DNA of 64,000 bases, from positions 6,848,001 to 6,912,000 of the forward strand of contig CAVTTN010000002.1 of NCBI GenBank assembly GCA_963737655.1, given 5' to 3'. A program made the translations under genes and the position numbers. Positions 21,439 through 38,516 of the stretch are shown piece by piece (positions within the stretch are counted from its first letter, which is position 1; every line of letters starts with the position of its first letter). The notes beneath the pieces were generated by a model. The model was not told where the DNA came from and made no database searches. It worked only from the letters and a program-made list of their open reading frames with translations. The stretch comes from an uncultured Planctomycetota bacterium (GTDB taxonomy: Bacteria; Planctomycetota; Planctomycetia; Isosphaerales; Isosphaeraceae).

Positions 21439-22180
21439 CCTCCGCGAACCCCGATTCGTCCGCCTCGTCCGCCTGGCGATCGGCGGCCTGACGACCCTCC
21501 CCGCCGGGCGGTTCCGCCAACCGGTCTCGGAGCGCGACCTCGCCGCCTCGCGGTTCGCCTTCCCCCTGGTCGGCGCCTATCTCGGCCTGATCCTGGCGGC
21601 CGTCCAGGTGGTTCTGGAACGATGGGGGGTTGGCGAAGGTCCGTCGGCCTGGGTCATCGTGGCGATGGCGGCGGGCCTGACCGGCGGCCTCCATCTCGAC
21701 GGCCTGGCCGATACCGCCGACGGCCTGTTCCTCGCCGGAGGCCCCGACCGGCGATTGTCCGCGATGCGTGACCCGAGGATCGGCAGCTTCGGGGTGATCG
21801 CGGTCGTCCTGGTCCTCCTGGGGAAATACGCGGCCCTGGGGAACCTGTCGGTTCCCGAGCGAGTCGTGAGGCTGATCGGGGCGTTCGCGGTCAGCCGGAC
21901 CCTCCTGATCGTGGCCGCCGGGTCGGCACCTTACGCCAGGCCCGAGGGGACGGGCCGGACGATCATCGACGCCGGGACTCCGGGAGAGGCTCTCATCGCC
22001 TCGGCCGGGGTCTGCCTGATCGGTGCCCTGACCGGGGGGAGCCGGGGTCTGCTCGCCTCATTGGCCAGCCTGGCCGTGGTCCTCATCCTGGTCCGGGTCG
22101 CCGATCGCCGGATCGGGGGGATCACCGGAGACATCCTGGGAGCCGCCGTCGAGCTCGCCGAGCTGACGTATCTCCTGTAG
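21431..22180 (+). CDS. cobS: Adenosylcobinamide-GDP ribazoletransferase
   Basis: TGGLHLDGLADTADG, MRDPRIGSFG, GGITGDILGA. Confidence 0.95.
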   Translation: MPDLREPRFVRLVRLAIGGLTTLPAGRFRQPVSERDLAASRFAFPLVGAYLGLILAAVQVVLERWGVGEGPSAWVIVAMAAGLTGGLHLDGLADTADGLFLAGGPDRRLSAMRDPRIGSFGVIAVVLVLLGKYAALGNLSVPERVVRLIGAFAVSRTLLIVAAGSAPYARPEGTGRTIIDAGTPGEALIASAGVCLIGALTGGSRGLLASLASLAVVLILVRVADRRIGGITGDILGAAVELAELTYLL

Positions 22181-22387
22181 GGTGCATGCAATGCACCGTC
22201 ATGTCGGGTGCATGCAATGCACCAACCCGCGGCGGGCGAAGCCCGCTTCCTTGGGATCGTCGGAACCGATCGGGAGAGGCGGGGGGTTGTTGCGGGCTTC
22301 GCCCGAGGCGGGTTGGTGCATTGCATGCACCCTACATGACGGTGCATTGCATGCACCCTACATGACGGTGCATTGCATGCACCCTAC
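22177..22387. repeat. REP cluster, family B (GTAGGGTGCATGCAATGCACC): two forward and three reverse copies
   Basis: Copies at 22177 and 22203 (forward) and at 22315, 22341 and 22367 (reverse), with a 26-bp period. Confidence 0.92.
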
Positions 22388-25242: not shown

Positions 25243-27936
25243 TCAATCCGCCACCCGGGCCGGCTGGGGGATCGTCAACACCTTGGGCTGGGTCTCTCGC
25301 CTCCGTTCGTTCCTCCGGTGGATCAGCCAGTGGCCGATCGGGACGAGCAGGGGACGGACCAGGATCGCATCCACGACGATGCCCACCACCAGCGCGAACC
25401 CCAGTTGCTTCAGCGACCCCAGGGGGCTGAACAGCATGGCCGCGAAGCTGCATGCGGTGATCGCCGCCGCCGAGGAGATCAGCCCGCCGGTCTGGGCGAT
25501 CGCGCGATTGATCCCCGCCTTCAGGCCCAGGACTCGCGTCTCTTCCTTCAACCGGGTCATCAGGAAGATGTTGTAATCCACGCCCACCGCCACCAGGAGC
25601 ACGAACAGGAAGTACGGGACCTTCCAGTCCAGCCCGTCGTGGCCGAGGATCGAGACGAAGACCAGGTGCGTGGTCCCCAGGGCGAAGGCGTAGGTCAGGA
25701 GCATCGTCGCCACCAGGTTCAGGCAGGCCCAGCCGTCCCGGAGGGTCACGAGCAAGACGAGGAAGACGCCGATGGGCACGACGATCCACGTCTGCCTCTG
25801 GTCCGAGCGGGTCAGGGTCCACACGTCGGCGCTCTCGGCGTTGGCGCCGGAGATCCCGAGCGAGACGGGGAAGGGGGTCCGCTCGGTCAGGTAGTCTCGG
25901 AGGCGTTTGCGGAGGGTCAAGACCTGCTCCATCGCCTCGTTGGAGAACATCCGGTGGTCCTGCTCGACGTCGAACCGGGCGAGGCGGCCGTCGGGCGAGA
26001 GGTAGGCGTCGAAACTCTTCTGCAACTCGGGATGTTCGCGGATGTCGCCGGGGGTGATGAGCAGGCGATTGAGCGTCTCGTGCCCCACCGGGTCGCGGAG
26101 GATCTTGGTGAGTTCCTGATTGGCCCTCTCGGCGCCGTCGGCGATCTGCGAGGCCCCCTTGGAGGCGGCGTCGAGCTCGCGGAGCATCTGCTCGCGGGGG
26201 TCGTCGACCTTGTTGGCGGCGGTCGTCTTCTTGTCCTCGTGGGACTCCGGCTTCTTCGCCCCGAACAGGGCGGCGGACGCCTGGCGGAGGCCCGAGGCGA
26301 CGGAGTCCCGGGCTTCCTTGTCGGTGATCGGGCCCCCGGTCAGCGGCAATCCGGTGATCTTTTCGAGCTTCAAAGCAAGCTGGAGCTTGACCTTGCCCTC
26401 GGCCAGGCCGTCCCGGAGCTTGCGGGCCCCTTCGGCCATCCGGCGGAAGCCGTCGTTGACCTCGGTGAGCCGGGATTCGATCCTCGCCTTCTCCAGGGGG
26501 GCCGGGCTGCCCAGGGGTTGGGTGGCGGAGCGGACCTCGGCGATCTTCTTCTGGGTCAAGTAGCGGCTGACGTCGTCGATCAGGGCGAGGCCCTCGGAAT
26601 CGCGGAGGTCGCGGTCGGTCCGGAGCACGATCGCCAGGGGCGCCACCCGTCCCGGGCCGAACTTGTTGGGCTCGGAGAGCATCGCCAGGGCCTTCACCGC
26701 CGGGGTGTCCTTCGGGAGCTCGCTAAACAGGTCCTGGAGGAACTCGGTTCGGACGCCGATCACGGCCACCGGCACCAGCACCAGGATGGCCGCCAGCCAC
26801 GTCCGAATCGGCCGGGCCAGGACGCGATGACCCACGTCGTCCCAGAAGCCGGTGGAGGGGGCCGTCAGGCCCGCGAACGACTTCGGCCGCAGGCGGGCCA
26901 GCAGGATCAACAACGCCGGGGTGAACGTCAGGCCGACGAGGACCGTGATCCCCAGCCCCAGGGCCACGCTCGGCCCGGTGCTCGAAAACAGCTTGAACCG
27001 GGTCGTCCCCATCAGGGAAAGCCCCACGATCACCGTCCCGGCGCTGGTCAGCACGGGCTCGAACGAGCGTTTCAACGTCGCCCTCATCGCCCCGGCGGGA
27101 TTCGCCGCGTTCCAGTGCTCGCCGAACCTCCAGGAGAGGAACAGGCAGAAATCGGTCCCGCAGCCGAACAACAGGACGACCAGGAACAGCTCGACCAGGG
27201 GGGAGACCTCCCAGCCCGCCAGGGCCAGCCACGCCAGGACGCTCCGGGACAGCACCAGCCCGATCCCGATCGTCACCAGGGGGATCGTCGCCAGCAGGAA
27301 CGAGCGATAGACCAGCAGCAACACGCCCAGGAGGAGGAACACCGTGGCATAGGCGGCGCGGTCCAGCGACTGCCGGATCTTCTGCATGTAATCGCGGCCG
27401 ATCACGGCGTCGCCGGTCCACTCCACCAGGAGCCCCTCGGGAGGAGGGCCGAGCCTCTTAGGCTTGGCCCGTTCCTGGAGCCAGACGACGGCCGCCTGGA
27501 GACTCGGCGAGACGAACGCCGTCTTGAACGGGATCACCAGGAGCTGGACCGTCCGGTCCCGGCTGACGAGCCTCTGGGCGATCTCCGGGGCCGACGCCGG
27601 GCCGAGGACGCGGAGGATGTCGGCCGGTCGGCGGGGGTCCTCGAATCCGGCGGCCATCTTGCGGGCGAATTCCCGGTCCTCGGTCGTCAGGCCGGCGGGC
27701 CTCTCCATCGCGACGACGGCGATGGCCTGGGACGCCTGGTCGGGCCAGGTCTGGCGGACGAGCTCGGCCACGCGGATGCTCTCGGTGTCGGCGGGCAGGA
27801 GGTCGGCCTGCCCCTCGGCGGCCAGGCGGGTCAGGCTGGGCGAGACGGCCAGGGCGACGACGGCCACGGCGAACCAGAACAGGACCACCCGGCCGGGGTG
27901 GCGGGTCACGACGAGGCGCAAGAAGTCAAGCGGCAT
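25243..27936 (-). CDS. MMPL/RND family transporter
   Basis: Two TM bundles with FGCGTDFCLFL and AVGVDYNIFL motifs, and a large periplasmic loop. Confidence 0.93.
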   Translation of the reverse strand: MPLDFLRLVVTRHPGRVVLFWFAVAVVALAVSPSLTRLAAEGQADLLPADTESIRVAELVRQTWPDQASQAIAVVAMERPAGLTTEDREFARKMAAGFEDPRRPADILRVLGPASAPEIAQRLVSRDRTVQLLVIPFKTAFVSPSLQAAVVWLQERAKPKRLGPPPEGLLVEWTGDAVIGRDYMQKIRQSLDRAAYATVFLLLGVLLLVYRSFLLATIPLVTIGIGLVLSRSVLAWLALAGWEVSPLVELFLVVLLFGCGTDFCLFLSWRFGEHWNAANPAGAMRATLKRSFEPVLTSAGTVIVGLSLMGTTRFKLFSSTGPSVALGLGITVLVGLTFTPALLILLARLRPKSFAGLTAPSTGFWDDVGHRVLARPIRTWLAAILVLVPVAVIGVRTEFLQDLFSELPKDTPAVKALAMLSEPNKFGPGRVAPLAIVLRTDRDLRDSEGLALIDDVSRYLTQKKIAEVRSATQPLGSPAPLEKARIESRLTEVNDGFRRMAEGARKLRDGLAEGKVKLQLALKLEKITGLPLTGGPITDKEARDSVASGLRQASAALFGAKKPESHEDKKTTAANKVDDPREQMLRELDAASKGASQIADGAERANQELTKILRDPVGHETLNRLLITPGDIREHPELQKSFDAYLSPDGRLARFDVEQDHRMFSNEAMEQVLTLRKRLRDYLTERTPFPVSLGISGANAESADVWTLTRSDQRQTWIVVPIGVFLVLLVTLRDGWACLNLVATMLLTYAFALGTTHLVFVSILGHDGLDWKVPYFLFVLLVAVGVDYNIFLMTRLKEETRVLGLKAGINRAIAQTGGLISSAAAITACSFAAMLFSPLGSLKQLGFALVVGIVVDAILVRPLLVPIGHWLIHRRNERRRETQPKVLTIPQPARVAD

Positions 27937-28115: not shown

Positions 28116-28286
28116 GGAGGGCCTCCTCCTACGGAGTGCGGAGTGCTGAGCCCCTTCCGTAAGGCAGGCCTCGGCCTGCCGAGACGCCAGGCCGGCAGGC
28201 CGAGGCCTGCCCTACGAGAGATGGTCGTCCCCTGCGACCGCGAATCGCCGCGCCCGCGGCACTCCGCACTCCGGAGGAGGCCCTCC
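28116..28286. repeat. Family C REPIN (28159-28215) nested in a 28-bp outer inverted repeat
   Basis: Outer arms ggagggcctcctcc(ta)cggagtgcggagtgc / gcactccgcactccggaggaggccctcc; inner gtaaggcaggcctcggcctgcc / ggcaggccgaggcctgccctac. Confidence 0.85.
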
Positions 28287-28432: not shown

Positions 28433-28744
28433 ATGTCGTACGGCGGAAGCGCGGATGCCACCGGGATTCAGGTCTCATTCCTGGACCAGACCGGGGCCAA
28501 ATCGGTCAAGGCCGTGATCGCGTTCAGCGTCCCGGTCAGCCGAATTTTGCCAAACATCATCACCAAGATGAACCTGCCGACGGTCTCGCCCGACGGCCAG
28601 CCGATGAGCTATTCGCTCGACCACAAGGAAGGCGGCCGGCGCCTCCTGGAGAGCCAGACCCTGCTGGAGGCGGGCGTGCAGAATGGCGACCACCTGATCG
28701 TCTATCCCGAGGTCGTGGCCGGCTCGGCGCGACGGTCGCGGTAA
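28433..28744 (+). CDS. Ubiquitin-like beta-grasp protein (EsaB/YukD-like)
   Basis: LLESQTLLEAGVQNGDHLIV is like ubiquitin's [20 protein letters not shown]. Ends VVAG-SARRSR. Strong RBS; adjacent to the E2. Confidence 0.85.
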   Translation: MSYGGSADATGIQVSFLDQTGAKSVKAVIAFSVPVSRILPNIITKMNLPTVSPDGQPMSYSLDHKEGGRRLLESQTLLEAGVQNGDHLIVYPEVVAGSARRSR

Positions 28745-28817: not shown

Positions 28818-29543
28818 ATGGCCGGCCCCTCGTCGTATGAATCCCCCCAGATGCGCCGGCTCCGCCACGACGCCAAGGCGATGGAGGAACTCCGCGAGGA
28901 AAGCTCGATCCTCCGGTTCCGCGCCTTCGGCCAGCCGGCCCAGCGGTATCTGATCGAGTTTCGCGGCCGGAGCCTCGCCCGGGACAAGGGGAAGGTGGTC
29001 CATCGCGACTCGCACGAGGTCGAGATCAAGCTCGGCGTGTCGTATCCCCGGACCATGCCGGAGCTTCGGTGGCTCACGCCGATCTACCACCCCAACATCT
29101 CGGAGATCGGCCTGGTCTGCCTCGGCGGTTACGGGACGCACTGGGTCCCCAGCCTCCACCTGGACGACCTCTGCGTGATGCTCTGGGACATGGCCCGCTA
29201 CCACAACTACGACATCCGCAGCCCGTATAACCGCGAGGCCGCCCTCTGGGCCGCCAACCAGACCACCTTCGCCTTCCCCACCGACGCCCGCCCGCTGAAG
29301 GACCGGCGCGCGGCCCTGGGACGGATCGACTACGACCTCAAGTCGGTCGAGCTGGTCAAGGACGCGCCTCCGCCGGTCGAGGCCTCGAAGCCCGTCGAGC
29401 CGCCGCCGAAGCCGCCGTCCCGCAAGAACGACGAACCCATCGAGATCTGCGTGATGGATTTCGAGGTCGATCTGCGAAGGCCCTCACCGCCCCCCGCGCC
29501 CCGGCCCCGGCCGGCGGACCAGGAGGTCATCTTCCTGGATTGA
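28818..29543 (+). CDS. Ubiquitin-conjugating enzyme E2 (UBC fold)
   Basis: YPRTMPEL...TPIYHPNISEIGLVCL (HPN plus catalytic Cys), W-x-P, SPYNREAA; Pro-rich C-terminal tail. Confidence 0.93.
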   Translation: MAGPSSYESPQMRRLRHDAKAMEELREESSILRFRAFGQPAQRYLIEFRGRSLARDKGKVVHRDSHEVEIKLGVSYPRTMPELRWLTPIYHPNISEIGLVCLGGYGTHWVPSLHLDDLCVMLWDMARYHNYDIRSPYNREAALWAANQTTFAFPTDARPLKDRRAALGRIDYDLKSVELVKDAPPPVEASKPVEPPPKPPSRKNDEPIEICVMDFEVDLRRPSPPPAPRPRPADQEVIFLD

Positions 29544-29685
29544 TCGGTTGATCGTTTGATCGATCGATCTCCGCGAACGGCGGCAGGACTCGGACCGGCG
29601 CCCGACGCCGTTTCCTCCTCGGATGAAACGTCCCGGATGGCGCGGGTTCCGTCCGTTCGCGTTGATCGCGTCGAATCGCGCTCTT

Positions 29686-29755
29686 GTAGGGTCCGCTATT
29701 GCGGACCTCTCCGATTTCGATTTGTCGCGAAGTGGTCCGCAATAGCGGACCCTAC
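29686..29755. repeat. REPIN, family A
   Basis: gtagggtccgctattgcggacc / ggtccgcaatagcggaccctac. Confidence 0.9.
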
Positions 29756-29942
29756 AAATACCGCCTTCGACCACGCTCAACCCATGCTTCCGGCCGCGGG
29801 ACGCCCTGAGGAGCGAACGGACCCGCCGGGGGCCGCCCCCGGCTTGACCGGGCCGTCGGCGGCCTGTCCAATGCAGGAACCTGGCCTCGGGTTGGGCGGA
29901 GCGTGGCATCGGGCCGGGCGGACATTCGGGAGCGTCGAGGCC

Positions 29943-32632
29943 ATGAAGCACGATCCGAGAGTCTCCCGGGCCGTGACGTGGCTCCTCGCGTCGCTGTGGA
30001 TCGGGCCGGCGATCGCTGGCGCGGCGGACGGTTATGTCCCGTTCGAGGGCGAGAAGTCCTCCTGGCACGAGGGGTTCGACCGCTTCGATTTCGTGATGGA
30101 CGAGGGCACCCTGGAGGTCTCGCCCTTCAAGAAGCCCGAGAGGGAGGGCTTCGGGGTCGGAGGCCCCGAGGCGGGGAAGCGCCGGTGCCTCGTGATCGTC
30201 CCCAAGCAGCCCGCCCCCGGCCAGCCCTGGGCGTGGCGAGGCCAGTACTGGGACCATGAGCCCCAGGCCGAGGTCGAGCTGCTCCGTCGGGGCTTCCACG
30301 TCGCGTTCATCACGCCCGACCCGGGCAAGCCGTGGGAGGCGTGGCACGCCTACCTGACCGAGAAGCACGGCCTTTCCCCGCGTCCCGCGTTCGTCGGGAT
30401 GAGCAAGGGCGGGGTCAACGCCTATGAGTGGGCCGCCGCCCATCCCGACAAGGTCTCGTGCATCTACGCGGACAACCCCGCGATCCGTCCGGCGCCTTCG
30501 CAAAGCTCGGGGACCTGGCGGCGCACGAGGTCGCCCTCCTGAACGTCTGCGGCAGCCAGGATTTCCTCCTGGAACGGCACACCCTGGCGATCGAAGCCCG
30601 CTATCACCAGCTCGGCGGCCGGATCACCGTGATGATCAAGGAAGGCCCGGCCCACCATCCTCATAGCCTCCGCGACCCCGGGCCGATCGCCGACTGGATC
30701 GTCGAGCACGTCCGCCCCGAGGCCGACCGGCCCGGCTTCTCCGGCTCGGCCTTCGTGAAGTCGTCTTACTACGGCCCGGGGGTCGAATTCGTCCCCCTGG
30801 AGAAGGAGAAGACCTTCGTCACCTGCCGGGGGCCCGGGTTCGTGCCGTGCTACGAGCGTTTCGACGCCCGGACCGACAGCCCGTGGGGCGTCACGGGGAT
30901 GGCGGTGATCGCGCCGAAGACCGCCGCCCCGGGGATGCCCTGGGTCTTCCGGGCCGACCCGATCGGCCGGGAGGCGCCCGTCGATCAGGCCCTCCTGGCC
31001 GAGGGGTTCCACATCGTGGTGGCGCCCCTGGTCGCCCAGGCGGGGCCGGTCCGGAGCCAGTGGGACGAGCTTTACAAGCGACTCGTCGCCCAGGGCTTCT
31101 CCACCCGTCCCGTCCTGGAAGGGGCCGGGGCGGCGGCCGGAGAGGCGTATGCCTGGGCGATCGAGAACCCGGAGAAGGTCTCGTGCATTTACGGGGAGAA
31201 CCCGGCCCTCCGCAGCCTGATGGCCCCGGGATCGCTGCTGGACCGGCTCGAACCGCTCGCCCGCGCCAAGGTGCCCCTGATCCACGCCTGCGGCAGCCTC
31301 GACCCGTGGCTCGAAAGCCAGACCCGGGCGGCCGAGGCGCGGTATCAGGCGCTGGGCGGCCGGATGACGGTCCTCATCGACGAGGGCAAGGGCCACTTCC
31401 CCACGGCCCCGAGAGACCCGAAGCCGGTCGTGCAATTCGTCCTCGCCCAGCAGCCCAAAGCGTCGGCCAAGGCCGAGGCCAGGCCGCCAGACTACCGCTT
31501 CGACCGCGAGATCTCCCGGGAAGTCCTGGAGAACTACCTCTCCCGGGCGATCTCGATGGAGGGCCTGCTCAACGGTCGGGGTGACCTGGACGACAACATC
31601 CGGATGGTCAAGGACACCGGGGCCAAGTTCGTCGGGCGGGCCCTGTGCCTGTGGGGAGGGGAGGCCGACCTGCTCCGCAACCTCGACCGGGCCCGTCAGC
31701 AGGTCCCGAAGCTCCACGCCGCCGACCCCGACCTGGTCCTCCAGGCCTGCATCTTCGAGATCGTGACCGCCCAGGTCGAGCGGGTTCCGGTCCCGGACTG
31801 GGCGTTCGTCGCCCTGGGGCGGCCGGTCGAATCACGAAATTTCCGATACGCCGACATGCTCTACCCCGACGGCCGCCGGGTGAACCACTGGCGGAGGGGC
31901 CAGTCGGTCCCGGACGTCAGCCGGCCGGAGACGAAGCTCTGGTTCTTCTTCCTGGCGGCGTCGTTCCTCGACCTGGGCTTCGAGGCGATCCACCTCGGGC
32001 AGACCGAGTTGATGAACGGGAACGACCGCGACCTGGCCCATTATTCCGAGGTCCTCGGCCTGATCCGCGCCCACGCGGCCACCCACGCCCGCCGCCACCT
32101 GGTCCTCTGCGACTCGCACGTGCCCGGCGGCGGGCTGGTCCGCGACGGGCGGCTGCTGATGGACTTCCACTCGTTCCCCCTGAGGATCAAGGAGGTCCCG
32201 GATTCGCCCCAGAAGGCGGTCCTGGAGGCGGGATTCTCCGACAGCCTCTACGGGCGGAGCAAGGGCGGAGTCACGCCCAGCGGCTGGTCGTGCGAGCACT
32301 TGCCCTACCTCGTCGAGCTCGACAACTGGGGGGCCAGCCGGCACCCGGGCGAGGCCGGGCAGGGCGGGATCTGGGTCTGGGGTTATGATGAAATCACCTG
32401 GTTCGCCCACCAGCCGGAGGCCGTCCGGGCCTCATGGCTCCGCTACGCGAACGACTGGGTCCGCGCCACCGATCCAAACGGCCACCTCCAGATGCCCGGC
32501 AGCCGCACTTTGAGGTCGCCCCTCGACGACAAGCGATGGTATTTCGCCAATCGCCCGAGCCCGGCCGTGCCCGAGGGCCTGGGGGACGAGGCGGCGATCC
32601 GGGCGATCTGGGCGGACGATTCCAGTAAATGA
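29943..32632 (+). CDS. Secreted tandem alpha/beta-hydrolase with an extra C-terminal domain; frameshift near 30490
   Basis: Signal peptide and GMSKGG nucleophile motif. A second repeat has GAGAAA at the equivalent position. The frames join as YADNPAIRP-AFAKLGDL with +1 base. Confidence 0.75.
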
Positions 32633-32734
32633 GGACCTGTCCCGCGGTCTTGATCCTTGCGGGGCCGCCGCCCAAGATGATCGGAGGGCGGCCCTCCACC
32701 TCGCCGACTCGCCGAACCGCCTCCGAGGCCCTTG

Positions 32735-33962
32735 ATGGATGACGACGACTCGCTGACCTTCCTGGACGACGACGCCCCGGGCGAAGCCCCGGCCCCCCCG
32801 GACGACGGGCCCGACCTCGTCATCGACGATTCCGACCGCTATTCCCGCCTGAGACTGATCCCCTGGTGGCGCCAGGAGCGACTGGCGGCGGCCCGGGTGC
32901 TGGTCGTCGGCGCGGGCGCTCGGCAATGAGGTCCTGAAGAACCTGGCCCTTCTCGGCGTGGGCCGGACCGTCGTGATCGACCTGGATTGCGTCGAGCCGT
33001 CGAACCTCTCGCGATCGGTCCTGTTCCGGGCCGAGGACGGCGGCCAGCCCAAGGCGGAGGTCGCCGCCAGGCGCTCGATGGAGATCAATCCGGAGGTGGT
33101 CGTCTCGCCGATCCGGGGGGACGTGATCACCGACCTGGGCCTGGGCCTCTTCGCCGACGTGGACGTGGTCATCGGCTGCCTGGACAACCGCGAGGCCCGG
33201 CTCTGGGTCAATCGCCAGTGCTGGAAGGTCGGGACGCCCTGGGTGGACGCCGGGATCCAGGAGATCCAGGGCGTCGTCAAGGTGTTCGTCCCGCCCGATT
33301 CCGCCTGCTATGAATGCGCGATGACGGAAAAAGACTATCAATTGCTCAATCTTCGCTACAGTTGCCCGCTGCTCCGTCGCGAGGACATCCTGGCCGGCAA
33401 GGTGCCGACGGCGCCGACGATCGCCTCGATGATGGCGGCGATGGAAGTGCAGGAGGCGCTGAAGCTCCTCCACGGATTGCCCGTCCAGGCGGGTTCGGCC
33501 CTGGTGTTCAACGGAGTGACGAACCAGTTCTATTCGACGAAGCTGCCGTTCCGCGAGGACTGCCTGAGCCACGAGACCTATCCCGAGCCATCGGCGCTGG
33601 AAATCGGCCATTCGGCCACGGCCCGAGCGCTTTTTGACCTCGCCCGGCCGACCGTGGGAAGCCCGATGAGCCTGGCGCTGGACCGCGACCTCGTCACGTC
33701 GCTGGATTGCCCCCGGTGCGGGTGGCATCGGGAGGTCTTCCGCCCCCGGACCAAGGTCACGATGGCCGAGGCGGTCTGCCCGAAGTGCCGCGAAGGCGCG
33801 AGGCCGGAGGTCGTCGGCTCGATCGACGAAGGCTCGCCGCTGGCCGACCGGTCGCTGGCGGACCTGGGCGTCCCGGCTTACGATATCGTCCGGGTCGATG
33901 GGTCCGAGGGCAGCGGATTCTTCCTCCTGGCCGGCGACCGCGACGCCGCCTGGAAGTTGTGA
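32735..33962 (+). CDS. ThiF/UBA-type E1 activating enzyme; frameshift near 32920
   Basis: DRYSRL...RVLVVGAG[A]LGNEVLKNL, DLDCVEPSNLSR, CLDNREAR, CYEC, putative catalytic RYSCP, and C-terminal CPRC/CPKC. Confidence 0.9.
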
Positions 33963-33974
33963 GGACGATCGATC

Positions 33975-34718
33975 ATGGCCACCGCGACGGAATCCACGAC
34001 GACGCCTCGTCCCTCGAAGATTGAGCCGGTCCCGGCCCTCCACAATGGCGACCGCCTGAGCGCCGCCGAGTTCGAGAGGCTCTATCGCGAGACGCCGACG
34101 AAATTCAAGGCCGAGCTGATCGAAGGAGTCGTGTACGTGGCCTCACCCGTCTCGAATTCTCATGGCTCATCGCACTTCGATGCCGCCGGATGGCTCCTGG
34201 TCTACAGGGCGTCAACGCCCGGGATCGTCGGTTCGGACAACGGGACGATCCGTCTCGATCTCGACAATCGGCCCCAACCCGACCTCCACCTGCGAATTAC
34301 CCCGGAGTACGGTGGCCGGGCCCGGCTGAGCGAGGATGATTACGTCGTCGGCGCCCCGGAGTTCGTCCTGGAGGCCTCGTTTTCCAGCGCCAGCTACGAC
34401 CTCCACGACAAACTAAACGCCTATCGCCGGAACGAGGTCCAGGAATACGTGGTCTGGAGGGTCGAGAACCGGGCGATCGACTGGTTCATCCTCCGGGACG
34501 GCCAGTATGAGCGGCTCCCGATCACGCCCGAAGGGCACTACCGAAGCGAAGTGCTGCCGGGCCTCTGGCTCGACCCCAAGGCGATGCTCGACGGCGACCT
34601 CGGGCGAGTCCTGGCGGTCCTCCACCTCGGCCTGGCCAGCCCGGATCATGCCCGGTTCGTGGCCGATCTGCGGGCCCGGATCGCTCCCGACCGCCCGGCC
34701 GGGGAGGCCCGCCCTTGA
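33975..34718 (+). CDS. Uma2/DUF820 family endonuclease
   Basis: LHNGDRL, AELIEGVVY, PQPD, GAPEFVLE, YDLHDK..AY, EYVVW. Confidence 0.9.
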   Translation: MATATESTTTPRPSKIEPVPALHNGDRLSAAEFERLYRETPTKFKAELIEGVVYVASPVSNSHGSSHFDAAGWLLVYRASTPGIVGSDNGTIRLDLDNRPQPDLHLRITPEYGGRARLSEDDYVVGAPEFVLEASFSSASYDLHDKLNAYRRNEVQEYVVWRVENRAIDWFILRDGQYERLPITPEGHYRSEVLPGLWLDPKAMLDGDLGRVLAVLHLGLASPDHARFVADLRARIAPDRPAGEARP

Positions 34719-36145
34719 GCGACGAGGACATCCAGTTCGACGACGTGACCTATCGCGAGCCCCACAAGGCCCGGCGGCCGGACTTCGAGCGCAAGCTCGC
34801 CTGCTCGGCCTACATGGTCCCCGGCGCGATCGACTTGCCCATCTTCCTCGACCTCGAGCCGGCCGACGCGATCGAGCGCCACGCCCTGCGCGACGTCTCG
34901 GTCGAGCTCGGCGGCATCCTCCTGGGCAAGGAGTGCATCGACGAGGAGACGGGCCGCCCGTTCGTCTGGGTCACCGAGTCGATCGAGGCGAAGCATTACG
35001 AGAACACCCAGGCGAGCTTCACGTATACTCACGACTCCTGGGAGGAGATCACCCGCGAGCGCGACGCGAAGCATCCCGACCTGGACATCGTGGGCTGGTA
35101 TCACACCCACCCGGATTTCGGGATCTTCCTCTCGGGTCATGACCTGTTCATCCATCACAATTTCTTCGCCCAGCCGCTGCAGGTCGCGTATGTGGTGGAC
35201 CCGATCCGCCAGACTCGCGGGTTCTTCCAGTGGCGGGACGGGCAGATGGTCCAGGTCGGCGGGTTCCACCTGACGGCCCCCCGGGCCGATCGGCCGAAGC
35301 TCGCGAGGTTCGTCAACGAGCTGGAAGGGCTCCCCTCCGCCGACGGCGGCGGAGGGTCCGGGATGTCCCCCCGACTGGAGGCCGAGCTGATCGCCATGCT
35401 TTCGCGACCCCACACCGTGGCGGCGGCGACCGATCGGTCGCAGACGGCCGCGATCTTCACCCTGATCGGGGTGTTCCTGGCGTCCCTGGTCTTCGCCGGG
35501 GCCTACTGGCTCCAGACGATCGGCAAGGGGGTGCAGGACCAGGCCAAAGCGATCGAGATGCTGGCCCAGGCCCAGGAAAAGGCGGCGGCGGCCTCGGAGA
35601 AGTCGCTGGGCTCCGAGCGCGTCCGCGCCAAGGAGGAGGCGCTCGACTCGCTCCTCAGAGACGTGAAGATCGACCCCGCCGCCTCGCCCGCGAAGGTCCT
35701 CTCCCGCCTGACCGAGGCGAACGCGAAGAAGGACGAGGCCGTCCGGGCGATGGAGAGGATTCGCACGGAGAAGGAGGCGCTCGTCGACAAGGCCACGGCC
35801 CTCGACGGCCAGCTCCGGCTCCGGGAGCGGGAGTACGAGAACAACCTGGCGAAGGTCCAGGAGGACGAGAAGAGGGCCCGGGCCGAGCAGGAGAGGCTGG
35901 AGGGGGAGGTCGATTCGCTCAAGAAGGACCTCGAGGCCAAGGCCGGGGTGATCCAGGACGACAAGACCGGCGAGCTCCTCCGCCGGTACAACTGGTCGTG
36001 GTATCTCGCGCTGATCGGCTGGATCGGCTTCCTCCTCTGCGGGGTGGGCCTGGGGGCGGTGTTCGCCCGGCAGTCGGAGGAGGCGGAATCGCGGTCCCGG
36101 GAGGTGGCGAGCCACGATCCCGAGCCTCCCCACCAGATCACCTGA
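34715..36145 (+). CDS. JAB/MPN+ (Mov34) metallo-isopeptidase with two TM helices flanking a coiled coil
   Basis: E-LGGIL...VGWYHTHPDFGIFLSGHD (JAMM HxHx7Sx2D), followed by TM, heptad-rich region and TM. TTG start overlaps the Uma2 stop. Confidence 0.92.
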   Translation: MSDEDIQFDDVTYREPHKARRPDFERKLACSAYMVPGAIDLPIFLDLEPADAIERHALRDVSVELGGILLGKECIDEETGRPFVWVTESIEAKHYENTQASFTYTHDSWEEITRERDAKHPDLDIVGWYHTHPDFGIFLSGHDLFIHHNFFAQPLQVAYVVDPIRQTRGFFQWRDGQMVQVGGFHLTAPRADRPKLARFVNELEGLPSADGGGGSGMSPRLEAELIAMLSRPHTVAAATDRSQTAAIFTLIGVFLASLVFAGAYWLQTIGKGVQDQAKAIEMLAQAQEKAAAASEKSLGSERVRAKEEALDSLLRDVKIDPAASPAKVLSRLTEANAKKDEAVRAMERIRTEKEALVDKATALDGQLRLREREYENNLAKVQEDEKRARAEQERLEGEVDSLKKDLEAKAGVIQDDKTGELLRRYNWSWYLALIGWIGFLLCGVGLGAVFARQSEEAESRSREVASHDPEPPHQIT

Positions 36146-36196: not shown

Positions 36197-37480
36197 ATGA
36201 AGAGTGTCCTCCTGGCGATCGCGTTGGTCTTGCCGGGGGCCGACGCCCCGGCCGTCGCCCCTCCGCCCGCTCCCGACGCCTCGAGCACCGACCCCGTCCC
36301 GGTCCCCGAGCCGACGGCGAAGGCCGTCCGCTTCTACCGGACGAGGCTGGTCGTCTGGGCCGTGAGCTGGGCCTGGACGCTGGCCATCCCCCTGGTCCTG
36401 GTCGTCACCGGGCTGTCGGCGAGGCTCCGGGCGTTGGCCTGGAGGCTGGGTCGGCGCTGGTTCTTCGCCGTCACGCTCTTCGTCGTGATGTACCTGGTCC
36501 TCGCGTACGTCCTGACGCTCCCCCTGGCGTTTTATTCCGGGTTCTGGCGGCTCAAGCAGTACGAGCTCTCGACCGAGACGTTCGGCGAATGGCTGCTGGA
36601 TTCGCTGAAGGGGCTGGGCGTGGAGGTGGTCACGATCTCGGCCGTGGCGTGGATTCCCTGCCTGCTCCTGGAGAGGAGCCCGAGGCGGTGGTGGCTCTCC
36701 ACGACCCTGCTCTCGGTCCCGATCATGTTCGGCTTCATGTTCCTGGCGCCGATCGCGGTGGACCCGCTCTTCCACGACTTCCACCCCCTCCGGGACAAGG
36801 CCGCCGAGGCCGAGATCCTCGCCCTGGCCCGTCGCGCGGGGATCGACGACGGACGGATTTTCGAAGTGGACATGAGCAAGAAGACCTCATCCGTGAACGC
36901 CTATGTGAAGGGGTTCCTCGGGACCAAGCGAATCGTCCTGTGGGATACCCTGCTGGCGAAGCTCGACCGCCGCCAGGCCCTGTTCGTGATGGGGCACGAG
37001 ATGGGGCATTACGTGCTCGGGCACGTGGTCCGAAGCCTGTTGCTGGGGGCGGTCGGGCTGGGGATCGTCCTGGGGTTCGTCCACCTGGCGGGATCGGCGC
37101 TGATCCGCCGGTTCGGGCCTCGATGGAAGATCGACCGACTCGGCGACCTCGCCGCGTTGCCCTTGCTCCTGTTCCTCGGCCGGGCGTTCGTGCTGGCGGC
37201 GATGCCGATCGGGATGGCCTACAGCCGCTACCAGGAACACGAGGCCGACCGCTTCGCCCTGGAACTGACCCGGGACAACCACGCCGGCGCCTCGGGATTC
37301 GCGAAGATGCAGGACCAGAACCTCAGCTACCCGAGGCCGGACTGGCTCGCCCAACTGTGGATGTCCACGCATCCCTCGCCGGGTGAACGGATCGACTTCT
37401 GCAACACCTATCGCCCCTGGGCCGAGGGCAAGCCGCTCCGATACGCCTCGCTCTTCCAGGAACAGCCGCCAGCCCCGTAG
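36197..37480 (+). CDS. M48 (Ste24/CAAX-like) membrane metallopeptidase
   Basis: NAYVKG, RIVLWDTL, GHEMGH, EHEAD, STHP and multiple TMs. Confidence 0.93.
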   Translation: MKSVLLAIALVLPGADAPAVAPPPAPDASSTDPVPVPEPTAKAVRFYRTRLVVWAVSWAWTLAIPLVLVVTGLSARLRALAWRLGRRWFFAVTLFVVMYLVLAYVLTLPLAFYSGFWRLKQYELSTETFGEWLLDSLKGLGVEVVTISAVAWIPCLLLERSPRRWWLSTTLLSVPIMFGFMFLAPIAVDPLFHDFHPLRDKAAEAEILALARRAGIDDGRIFEVDMSKKTSSVNAYVKGFLGTKRIVLWDTLLAKLDRRQALFVMGHEMGHYVLGHVVRSLLLGAVGLGIVLGFVHLAGSALIRRFGPRWKIDRLGDLAALPLLLFLGRAFVLAAMPIGMAYSRYQEHEADRFALELTRDNHAGASGFAKMQDQNLSYPRPDWLAQLWMSTHPSPGERIDFCNTYRPWAEGKPLRYASLFQEQPPAP

Positions 37481-37677
37481 GGTGCATGAAATGCACCATC
37501 CCGGCTTCGGCTCGCGTGGGATCGAAGATGGTGCATTTCATGCACCCTACGAATCCTGGGCGTCCCGTAGGGTGCATGAAATGCACCATCCCGGCTTCGG
37601 CTCGCGTGGGGTCGAAGATGGTGCATTTCATGCACCCTACGAATCCTGGCCGTCCCGTGGGGTGCATTGGATGCACT
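37477..37677. repeat. Tandem family B REPINs (two 90-bp units plus a partial unit)
   Basis: Near-identical units at 37477-37566 and 37567-37656, each gtagggtgcatgaaatgcacc...ggtgcatttcatgcaccctac. Confidence 0.92.
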
Positions 37678-37685
37678 CGGGCGCC

Positions 37686-38516
37686 TCAGGCCGAGGTGCA
37701 TTGCTTGCTGGAGCAGCCGAAGGTGGAGCAGGCGCCGACGAACGTCCAGCAATCGCGGTGGAAGGGGGTCTTGCACGCGATGCAGACGACGTGGAGGCCG
37801 ACGATCGGGTCTCCGCAGACCTCGCATTGCGGAGGGCCGGCGTCTTCCTCGGCGGGCCCGGCCTCGACGATCTCGATCCCCTCGGCCAGCCGCGACGTCA
37901 CGCCGTGCTGGAGGCAGTCGTGGAGCTTCAACGCCGCTTTCACGGCCGAATCGAGCAGGAGGGCCTGCGTGCCGAGGTTCCGATCGACCTGGACCAGCAG
38001 CCTCTCCGGGTTGATCGACACCAGCATCCCGAACGGCGGGGCGAGCTTGCGGAGGTCGTCCACGGCTTGCCGGGCCTCGGCCGATCGGAGGAACTCGCGG
38101 GCCATGTCGGCGTCGTTGGCCTGGACGACGTACCCGCGGTCGAACTCCGGATGGCCGGCGCGGACCGGCCTCGTCCCTTTCGGGGGCTGAGGAGGCGCCG
38201 GTCGGCCGTATGGGGCCAGCTCGAACCGGAACGGCAAGCCCCGGGCGAACCGCGCGACGACCCGGGTCCTCGGCAACGCCGGCTGGCCCGCCACGACCGG
38301 GGCCAGCCCGACCCTCACGGTCGATCCCAGGTGGCTGAAGCTCACCGTCGGCGGATCGACCATCCCCCGGCTCTCGTATTTCCCGCCGTACCTCGCGGCG
38401 ATCAGGCGATAGGCCCGATGCCTCGTCCCGGTCAGCCCCGCCACCAGCCGGGAGGCCAGGCGGACGATCAGGTAGAGCACGAGGAAGACGACCCCCAGCC
38501 CGATGACCTCTTTCAT
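37686..38516 (-). CDS. Membrane-anchored protein with C-terminal prokaryotic RING finger (Prok-RING_1-like; candidate E3)
   Basis: N-terminal TM and C-terminal CEVC-x10-CIAC-x4-HRDCW-x5-CSTFGC. Confidence 0.82.
   Translation of the reverse strand: MKEVIGLGVVFLVLYLIVRLASRLVAGLTGTRHRAYRLIAARYGGKYESRGMVDPPTVSFSHLGSTVRVGLAPVVAGQPALPRTRVVARFARGLPFRFELAPYGRPAPPQPPKGTRPVRAGHPEFDRGYVVQANDADMAREFLRSAEARQAVDDLRKLAPPFGMLVSINPERLLVQVDRNLGTQALLLDSAVKAALKLHDCLQHGVTSRLAEGIEIVEAGPAEEDAGPPQCEVCGDPIVGLHVVCIACKTPFHRDCWTFVGACSTFGCSSKQCTSA

Follow-up and report, generated by a model that had tools for sequence, protein, structure and literature searches.

What is the role of the short acidic and hydrophobic segments that stand at the ends of the E2, E1 and JAB proteins of a planctomycete operon for a ubiquitin-like protein (Ubl)? 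The operon lies in a stretch of 64,000 nucleotides, called here the window, from an uncultured bacterium of the Isosphaeraceae (assembly GCA_963737655.1, contig CAVTTN010000002.1, positions 6,848,001 to 6,912,000), and coordinates below are those of the window. Its plus strand encodes a YukD-like Ubl of 103 residues (28433..28744; Pfam YukD, 54 bits, over the cut-off), an E2 (UBC) with an HPN motif, the catalytic Cys101 and a Pro-rich C-terminal tail (28818..29543; Pfam UQ_con), an E1 with a ThiF/MoeB-type adenylation domain and a C-terminal domain with a zinc ribbon (32735..33962; Pfam ThiF), and a JAB/MPN+ peptidase (34715..36145; Pfam JAB and Prok-JAB). The original prediction, made from the sequence of the window, quoted five peptides in the E2, E1 and JAB that resemble SUMO-interacting motifs (SIMs) and may form a common code for docking on the Ubl or on a scaffold. 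We find that these motifs are conserved, terminal in position and specific to these proteins, and that their charge varies together with that of one face of the Ubl. The reading that we favour, with somewhat better than even confidence, is that they are short Ubl-binding strands acting like SIMs, i.e. a SIM-like Ubl-docking code.

Position and form of the terminal motifs

All five peptides are present on the plus strand of the E2, E1 and JAB genes as originally described, and the domain assignments agree with Pfam. The E2 tail carries an internal motif, DEPIEICVMD (29430–29459, with a conserved extension to 29474), of which ICVMDFEVDL, not DEPIE, is the part conserved in an alignment of 45 selected tails (family pattern hydrophobic x3-acid), and it ends in DQEVIFLD-stop (29517–29543; family consensus [DE]-[IV]-[VILM]-F-[IL]-[DE]-stop). 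The E1 starts with an optional distal motif, DDDDSLTFLDDD (32738–32773; LTFLD), followed by a proximal motif, DLVIDDSD (32813–32836), and the JAB starts with SDEDIQFDDV (34718–34747; family consensus D-[DE]-[IM]-x-F-[GDE]-[ED]). A candidate fifth motif, EGIEIVE (37863..37883, minus strand), lies upstream of the RING finger of a neighbouring Prok-RING_1 protein. With the related operons sorted into clades on the E1 tree, the pattern G[IV]x[IVF][VILF] precedes 48 of the 53 distinct RINGs of clades A and A' and none of the 36 of clade D; EGIEIVE may be a structural strand instead of a docking motif.

The motifs have in common a pair of hydrophobic residues one position apart, often with Phe at its end, between acidic flanks. 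The SIM core as defined in PMC12751080 (papers are cited here by identifier) has four residues, at least three of them hydrophobic and mostly Val/Leu/Ile; the E2 C-terminal and E1 proximal motifs have such a core, and the JAB and E1 distal cores often comprise just two or three hydrophobic residues, with Phe. SIMs have an acidic or phosphorylatable flank; an acidic one is found in clades A and A', its place being taken by a basic flank in clades B and C.

The original description of the motifs as sitting on Pro-rich linkers outside the catalytic domains holds for the E2, whose tail is 40–195 residues long with a linker that is 18% Pro, and fails for DLVIDDSD, which directly adjoins the conserved DRYxRL start of the ThiF domain. 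Indeed, the E1 proximal, JAB and RING motifs keep a fixed spacing to their own domains, as would be expected if there were no single code and if some of them (E1 proximal, RING, JAB start) were strands with a structural role in their own proteins or dimers, alike through convergent composition. We regard this explanation as improbable: the E2 C-terminal motif sits after linkers of 40–195 residues, the E1 LTFLD comes and goes between orthologues, and polarity shifts together on unrelated proteins, as described below.

Note that many JABs of the family finish, after the last hydrophobic segment, with a Pro-rich linker and His-x-Ile-x-stop (36119–36145 in the window), which, judged by its sequence, is a second conserved terminal motif of the JAB. 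Also, strand β1 of the Ubl, IQVSFLD (28466–28486), resembles E1 LTFLD and E2 VIFLD, a likeness that is gone in distant clades.

The motifs are conserved and specific to the operon

We fetched 60 of the 89 positive genomes of the family, all of which hold the Ubl and the E2, and 57 of which also hold the E1 and the JAB. The motif patterns were composed after the sequences had been seen, and the counts describe conservation; they are no blind tests. The strict E2 C-terminal motif is in frame in 47 of the 60 loci, the 13 misses consisting of six loci with the motif and the stop in another frame, six looser variants and one locus with none. A narrow pattern for the E2 internal motif matches 37 of the 60 loci, the E1 proximal motif is found in all 51 intact E1s, and the JAB motif in 55 of 57 loci. 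The mean pairwise identity of the E2s is 0.73 in the core, 0.35 in the linker (internal motif included) and 0.49 over the seven motif residues, where exchanges are conservative and the Phe is invariant. Distant orthologues with other gene orders, including one from a record titled Deltaproteobacteria, retain acidic hydrophobic ends. Lack of conservation had been named beforehand as the outcome that counts against the original prediction; the amino-acid sequence of the motifs is in fact kept, within linkers that differ greatly in length. As a side observation, the JABs of ten distant clade A' loci have lost the membrane and helical extension and kept the N-terminal motif.

Motif codons vary synonymously, all three stop codons are used and the distance to the next gene ranges from −4 to 992 nucleotides; with codons and gene spacing this free, the constraint must act on the protein. 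Among 6095 host proteins, predicted with a crude gene caller, the strict C-terminal pattern occurs once, in this E2, while the loose core occurs in 18 of the 6095 windows formed by the last 12 residues and in 21 of the 6095 formed by the first 15. The motifs thus exceed chance, since the strict pattern is so rare. A scan of the host proteome for an acid-rich core near an end returned eight proteins, E1 and JAB among them, and no proteome-wide motif code is evident in it.

These data bear on the possibility that the segments serve as degrons or as acidic ends for metal binding, or that they reflect signals at the nucleotide level (translational coupling or start-region bias). Such roles would account for their terminal position, and the JAB often starts at the E1 stop codon. 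Nevertheless, we hold them to be very improbable, given the synonymous variation of the codons, the free gene spacing and the rarity of the pattern at host protein ends; as for metal, the basic versions of the motifs cannot bind it.

The charge of the motifs and of the Ubl β2–α1 face changes together

The Ubl part of the proposed code gains indirect support because the motif and the β2–α1 face of the Ubl swap charge in related clades; the scaffold part of the original proposal gained nothing. Strands and helices of the Ubl were assigned by alignment to ubiquitin-like chains together with an assumed SUMO register placed by hand. The β2–α1 segment, residues 23–45 (28499..28567, plus strand), contains K23, K26, R37 and K45 and is the proposed basic motif-binding groove. 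We scored the charge of the last nine E2 residues against that of the 14 Ubl columns that correspond to the SUMO SIM groove in this register, across which the Ubl of the window has a net charge of +4.

In clade A (61 rows examined, seven dropped: six frameshifted and one without the motif), the groove is +3 to +4 and the E2 end is negative in 54 of the 54 rows used. In clade A', the corresponding figures are 0 to +5, with 11 of 13 E2 ends negative and two neutral. The signs are reversed in clade B, which comes mostly from one other family of the phylum (groove −5, E2 end positive in 10 of 10 loci), and in clade C (groove −1 to −3, E2 end positive in 23 of 26, these being two genomes and 24 metagenome loci, some of them near-duplicates). 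Clade B proteins have basic strands in these positions, e.g. RISIRPK for the E2 end and LRIRVK for the JAB start; clade C E2s mostly end in KPRIRLK-stop, and in the clade C E1 the place of the acidic proximal motif, by spacing, is taken by KPLRIPN. As for the other proteins, JAB starts are negative in all 55 loci of clade A and all 13 of clade A' and positive in the seven clade B loci with a start codon; for the E1 proximal window, 56 of 58 clade A loci score negative and nine of 10 clade C loci score positive.

The change is localized. Outside the groove, the charge of the Ubl sums to zero or below in every clade, and the E2 core is mostly positive throughout, therefore neither flips; the summed charge change amounts to 7.2 over the 14 groove columns as opposed to −0.6 over the other 74. 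When the best 23-column flip is taken for each protein, the β2–α1 segment of the Ubl comes first with 8.2, followed by the E1 (4.4), the JAB (2.3) and the E2 (1.6). Two of the three most-flipped Ubl columns map, in the assumed, hand-placed register, to SUMO1 Lys46 and Arg54, and the Ubl equivalents of these two residues are basic. Both SUMO1 residues are named as part of the SIM groove in PMC12751080.

At a finer scale, a nested small group with Lys/Arg at β2 column 20 has, by eye, an acid at the centre of the JAB motif in four of five loci. We do not claim size complementarity between an invariant β2 Ala and the motif Phe, as clades with that Ala also have Ile motifs. Most clade C operons have two Ubl genes flanking the E2 gene, both acidic-grooved.

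Structural models

We modeled the E1 with AlphaFold2 as a monomer, using an intact orthologue from the same genus (62-row alignment, mean predicted local distance difference test score (pLDDT) 88). In this model, residues 2–8, in the distal motif, have a pLDDT below 50, and the proximal motif has no strand assigned, with a pLDDT of 66 for the block. Likewise, in a monomer model of the JAB domain (61 rows, pLDDT 89), residues 1–7 are below 50 and later residues are confident. The E1 LTFLD and JAB motifs are thus left unfolded in the AlphaFold monomers, which suggests that these two motifs may be disordered. Co-folding of the Ubl with the last 40 residues of the E2, both given as alignments, returned scores of 0.03 and 0.08 against a mark of 0.32; it provides no answer and is evidence neither way.

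The E1 model aligns over residues 29–400 to NEDD8 and ubiquitin E1s, which recruit E2s through a C-terminal ubiquitin-fold domain (PMC12355090), and it is in the C-terminal part of the E1 that the second and third strongest flip windows are found (4.4 and 4.05). Hence the possibility that the motifs dock on the ubiquitin-fold/zinc-ribbon domain of the E1, for E2 recruitment, the E1's own copies being autoinhibitory, or else on another enzyme of the cascade. We consider this unlikely: the Ubl flips twice as strongly as the E1, the monomer model shows neither of the two N-terminal motifs docked on the C-terminal domain of the same chain, and a deconjugase has more reason to bind the Ubl than the E1.

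Several observations weigh against docking on the Ubl, or limit its reach. The groove columns were selected after the β2 flip had been seen, so that the figure of 37 in 100000 shuffles overstates the case; no column flips more strongly than column 62, which lies outside the groove, and the position of SUMO1 Lys39 is Ala/Ser in the Ubl. Clades B, C and D form an unresolved three-way fork on which the tree needs two changes, and a single origin of B and C is not rejected (approximately unbiased test, p-AU 0.46); therefore, the charge covariation represents one or two evolutionary events. In clade C, the basic character of the JAB starts is weak (10 positive, seven neutral and five negative of 22, with automatic start calls), and the E1 proximal window of clade B is neutral in six of 10 loci. 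The 13 loci of clade D with an E2, whose groove is basic, show no E2 terminal motif, the ends being negative in six, neutral in five and positive in two; therefore, the code is not universal. Similarly, no clear motif was seen by eye in four divergent clade E loci, which were left out of the charge table. One of the five motifs, the E1 LTFLD, is optional (20 of the 51 intact E1s), and the E1 proximal motif, with its fixed spacing to the domain, could pack in an E1 dimer, our models being monomers.

A possible docking mechanism

If the motifs do bind the Ubl, a motif strand would pair with the free edge of Ubl β2, its hydrophobic side chains would enter the β2–α1 groove and its acids would meet the Lys and Arg residues round it. 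The β2–α1 face would be separate from the face used by the catalytic domains; therefore, the E1, the E2, the JAB and perhaps the RING protein could each act on the C-terminus of the Ubl with the Ubl itself, or a protein modified by it, tethered to them. By analogy, the enzymes would hand the tethered Ubl along, holding it during activation, transfer and removal. The tandem copies on the E2 and the E1 might increase avidity or serve to recognise targets with several modifications, and co-resident Ubl systems might be kept apart by the sign of the charges on motif and groove. We infer the identity of the groove, the binding of the Ubl, its hand-off and conjugation itself. A stronger proposal, to which we give slightly less than an even chance, is that this bacterial Ubl family has a true SIM-type groove, where E1, E2, deconjugase and RING ligase dock on β2–α1 via short terminal strands, and where the inversion of the charge sign between lineages yields orthogonal systems. 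If so, the SIM principle predates eukaryotes or arose twice.

Comparison with known Ubl systems

In SUMO, binding of E1, E2 or protease leaves the groove unoccupied, and the SIMs of SAE2 and the SENPs are located on flexible extensions (PMC12687455). The likeness of the present motifs to SIMs (PMC12751080, PMC12687455) lies in the short hydrophobic core with an acidic flank on enzyme ends that may be flexible, the putative basic β2–α1 face on the modifier and the tandem copies. Unlike SIMs, they are bacterial, go with a YukD-like Ubl that has an Ala-Gly end, commonly have Phe in the core, have their best-conserved copy on the E2 and exist in charge-reversed versions, their binding to the Ubl being a prediction. 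Thus, the motifs would work like SIMs but are not SIMs, the modifier being YukD-like and not SUMO. Several enzymes of one pathway carry a motif for its modifier also in the case of Atg3 and Atg4, with their LC3-interacting region (LIR) motifs. UBA5, which needs a linear UFM1-interacting sequence to engage UFM1 (PMC12355090), is similar in that it is a MoeB-like E1 whose linear motif for its Ubl lies outside the adenylation domain; it differs in that the motifs of the present E1 are N-terminal and in that this E1 includes, in addition, a C-terminal domain that aligns with canonical E1s.

As for the operon itself, complete prokaryotic Ubl systems with E1, E2, RING and JAB were reportedly predicted by Burroughs, Iyer and Aravind in 2011. 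PMC7159879 cites predicted tri-ligase Ubl systems with Prok-RING and related systems in planctomycetes. The window has the tri-ligase-type gene set, i.e. linked genes for Ubl, E1, E2, JAB and Prok-RING, and shares with these systems the separate genes, the membrane Prok-RING_1 protein and the occurrence in planctomycetes; we found no experimental study of this operon type in the open-access literature. The bacterial Bil and Bub systems (bioRxiv 2024.11.21.623966, PMC10557695, 2024.11.21.623953) also comprise conjugation genes for Ubl, E2, E1 and JAB. In contrast to Bil, the E1 here has about 400 residues and one adenylation domain where the Bil E1 (IAD-AAD) combines an inactive with an active one, and the E2 is of the UQ_con and not of the CEHH type; PADLOC gave a weak BilD match alone and none for the Ubl or the E2. 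In contrast to Bub, there are four separate genes and no Ubl-E2, JAB-E1 or E2-E1 fusion. The operon is also near-universal in one family and includes a RING partner, whereas Bil and Bub are sparse. The Ubl differs in context from the YukD/EsaB of type VII secretion, found in the neighbourhood of ESAT-6 export genes (PMC1779556), as the genes next to it, across the 60 mapped loci, encode E2, E1 and JAB.

In a search of solved structures with the Ubl profile, the nearest match other than polyubiquitin was a 'Ubiquitin-like protein' (PDB 6fj7/6fnn, E 0.005), and no match to SUMO was significant. These entries, which we presume to originate from Caldiarchaeum, represent the archaeal eukaryote-like ubiquitin system, which shares with the present one a canonical E2 with HPN and Cys and an Rpn11-like JAB; to our knowledge, terminal docking motifs have not been reported for it.

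Gene content and genomic context

The Ubl is the single YukD match in the whole genome; its mean column identity is 89% in 44 orthologues, and its conserved end EVVAG, at residue 97, is followed by a short variable tail. Catalytic residues are kept as invariant columns (E1 Cys, JAMM motif, C-terminal Gly), the E2 HPN and Cys being read in the sequence of the window. The crossover-loop Cys codon of the E1 is at 33363–33365, and E64, H130, H132, S140 and D143 of the JAB are invariant in 61 sequences. Judging membrane segments from the sequence, the JAB consists, beyond its peptidase domain, of a hydrophobic segment, a long charged helical region and a second hydrophobic segment.

The E1 frame is broken in this assembly near 32915–32926, a GC-rich stretch of the nucleotide-binding loop. 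Of the 57 family loci with an E1 gene, 51 have it intact and six have it interrupted at various positions, three of them at this same GC-rich spot; the frameshift is probably an assembly error rather than a real break. Two other genes interrupt the operon. An alpha/beta-hydrolase-like gene in two frames (29943..32632, plus strand; weak Abhydrolase_1 match) is unrelated to the Ubl system and no component of it, none of the 74 related loci having this insert between E2 and E1. A Uma2 endonuclease-like gene (33975..34718, plus strand; Pfam Uma2) is a sporadic insertion present in nine of the 74.

Downstream lie two conserved neighbours: an M48 (Ste24-like) membrane peptidase (36197..37480, plus strand; assigned by Pfam), with a gene in 50 of the 74 related loci, and the membrane-anchored Prok-RING_1 protein (37686..38516, minus strand; Pfam Prok-RING_1, 30.2 bits, over the cut-off), a candidate E3 with a gene in 49 of the 74, including three distant loci where it comes after the JAB gene. 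A canonical RING pattern gave no match, and the protein was recognised via its neighbourhood and Pfam. With such neighbours and with JAB and RING proteins anchored in the membrane, it is conceivable that the motifs bind a scaffold or membrane hub that brings the enzymes of the cascade together at the membrane, be it the RING protein, the M48 peptidase or some unlinked protein. There is little probability in this, in our view: the M48 gene is absent from four distant loci tested, no match to the RING pattern was obtained in clade B (10 loci) or clade C (28 loci), the motifs being kept in all these cases, and a scaffold leaves the flip of the Ubl groove unexplained.

A gene for an MMPL-family transporter (25243–27936, minus strand) is a conserved divergent neighbour in 32 of the 74 loci. 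Short inverted-repeat elements, by eye resembling repetitive extragenic palindromes, occupy intergenic positions (29687–29756, ~22180–22380, 28150–28220 and 37320–37680).

The nearest named records of the operon are Isosphaeraceae. A match to the E2 is found in 90 of 101 genomes of the family and in 40 of 301 genomes of the phylum, where six of the others are at 50–55% identity and the rest are more distant. This near-universal syntenic presence in one family, together with the membrane-anchored JAB, RING and M48 partners, suggests, as far as gene content can indicate, less a mobile defence island than a housekeeping function linked to the membrane.

Clade D operons, as seen in seven loci, add several Prok-RING, DUF4190, trypsin and FHA proteins and have Cys-rich E2 tails; the FHA proteins begin with a strand-like motif, e.g. 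KIRITRDEL. Some Isosphaeraceae genomes, represented by two of these loci, carry both clade A and clade D operons. A clade D operon is also present in four genomes of 10–13 Mb from another phylum; six of the 251 genomes searched have a Ubl match.

Implications

No paper describing these motifs was found in the open-access literature, Burroughs et al. 2011 not being covered, and the original statement that they had not been described in bacteria agrees with this. The operon type was predicted earlier; the docking motif appears new. According to a 2025 review, no prokaryotic Ubl system so far shares the SIM-binding groove of SUMO, and the study of prokaryotic Ubl systems is a route to understanding how SUMO and ubiquitin diverged (PMC12687455). 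If the motifs bind the Ubl, they would provide a sequence handle for finding the readers and substrates of bacterial Ubls, and cultured Isosphaeraceae would offer a system with a SIM-type groove, made of small soluble parts and including a natural charge-swapped pair.

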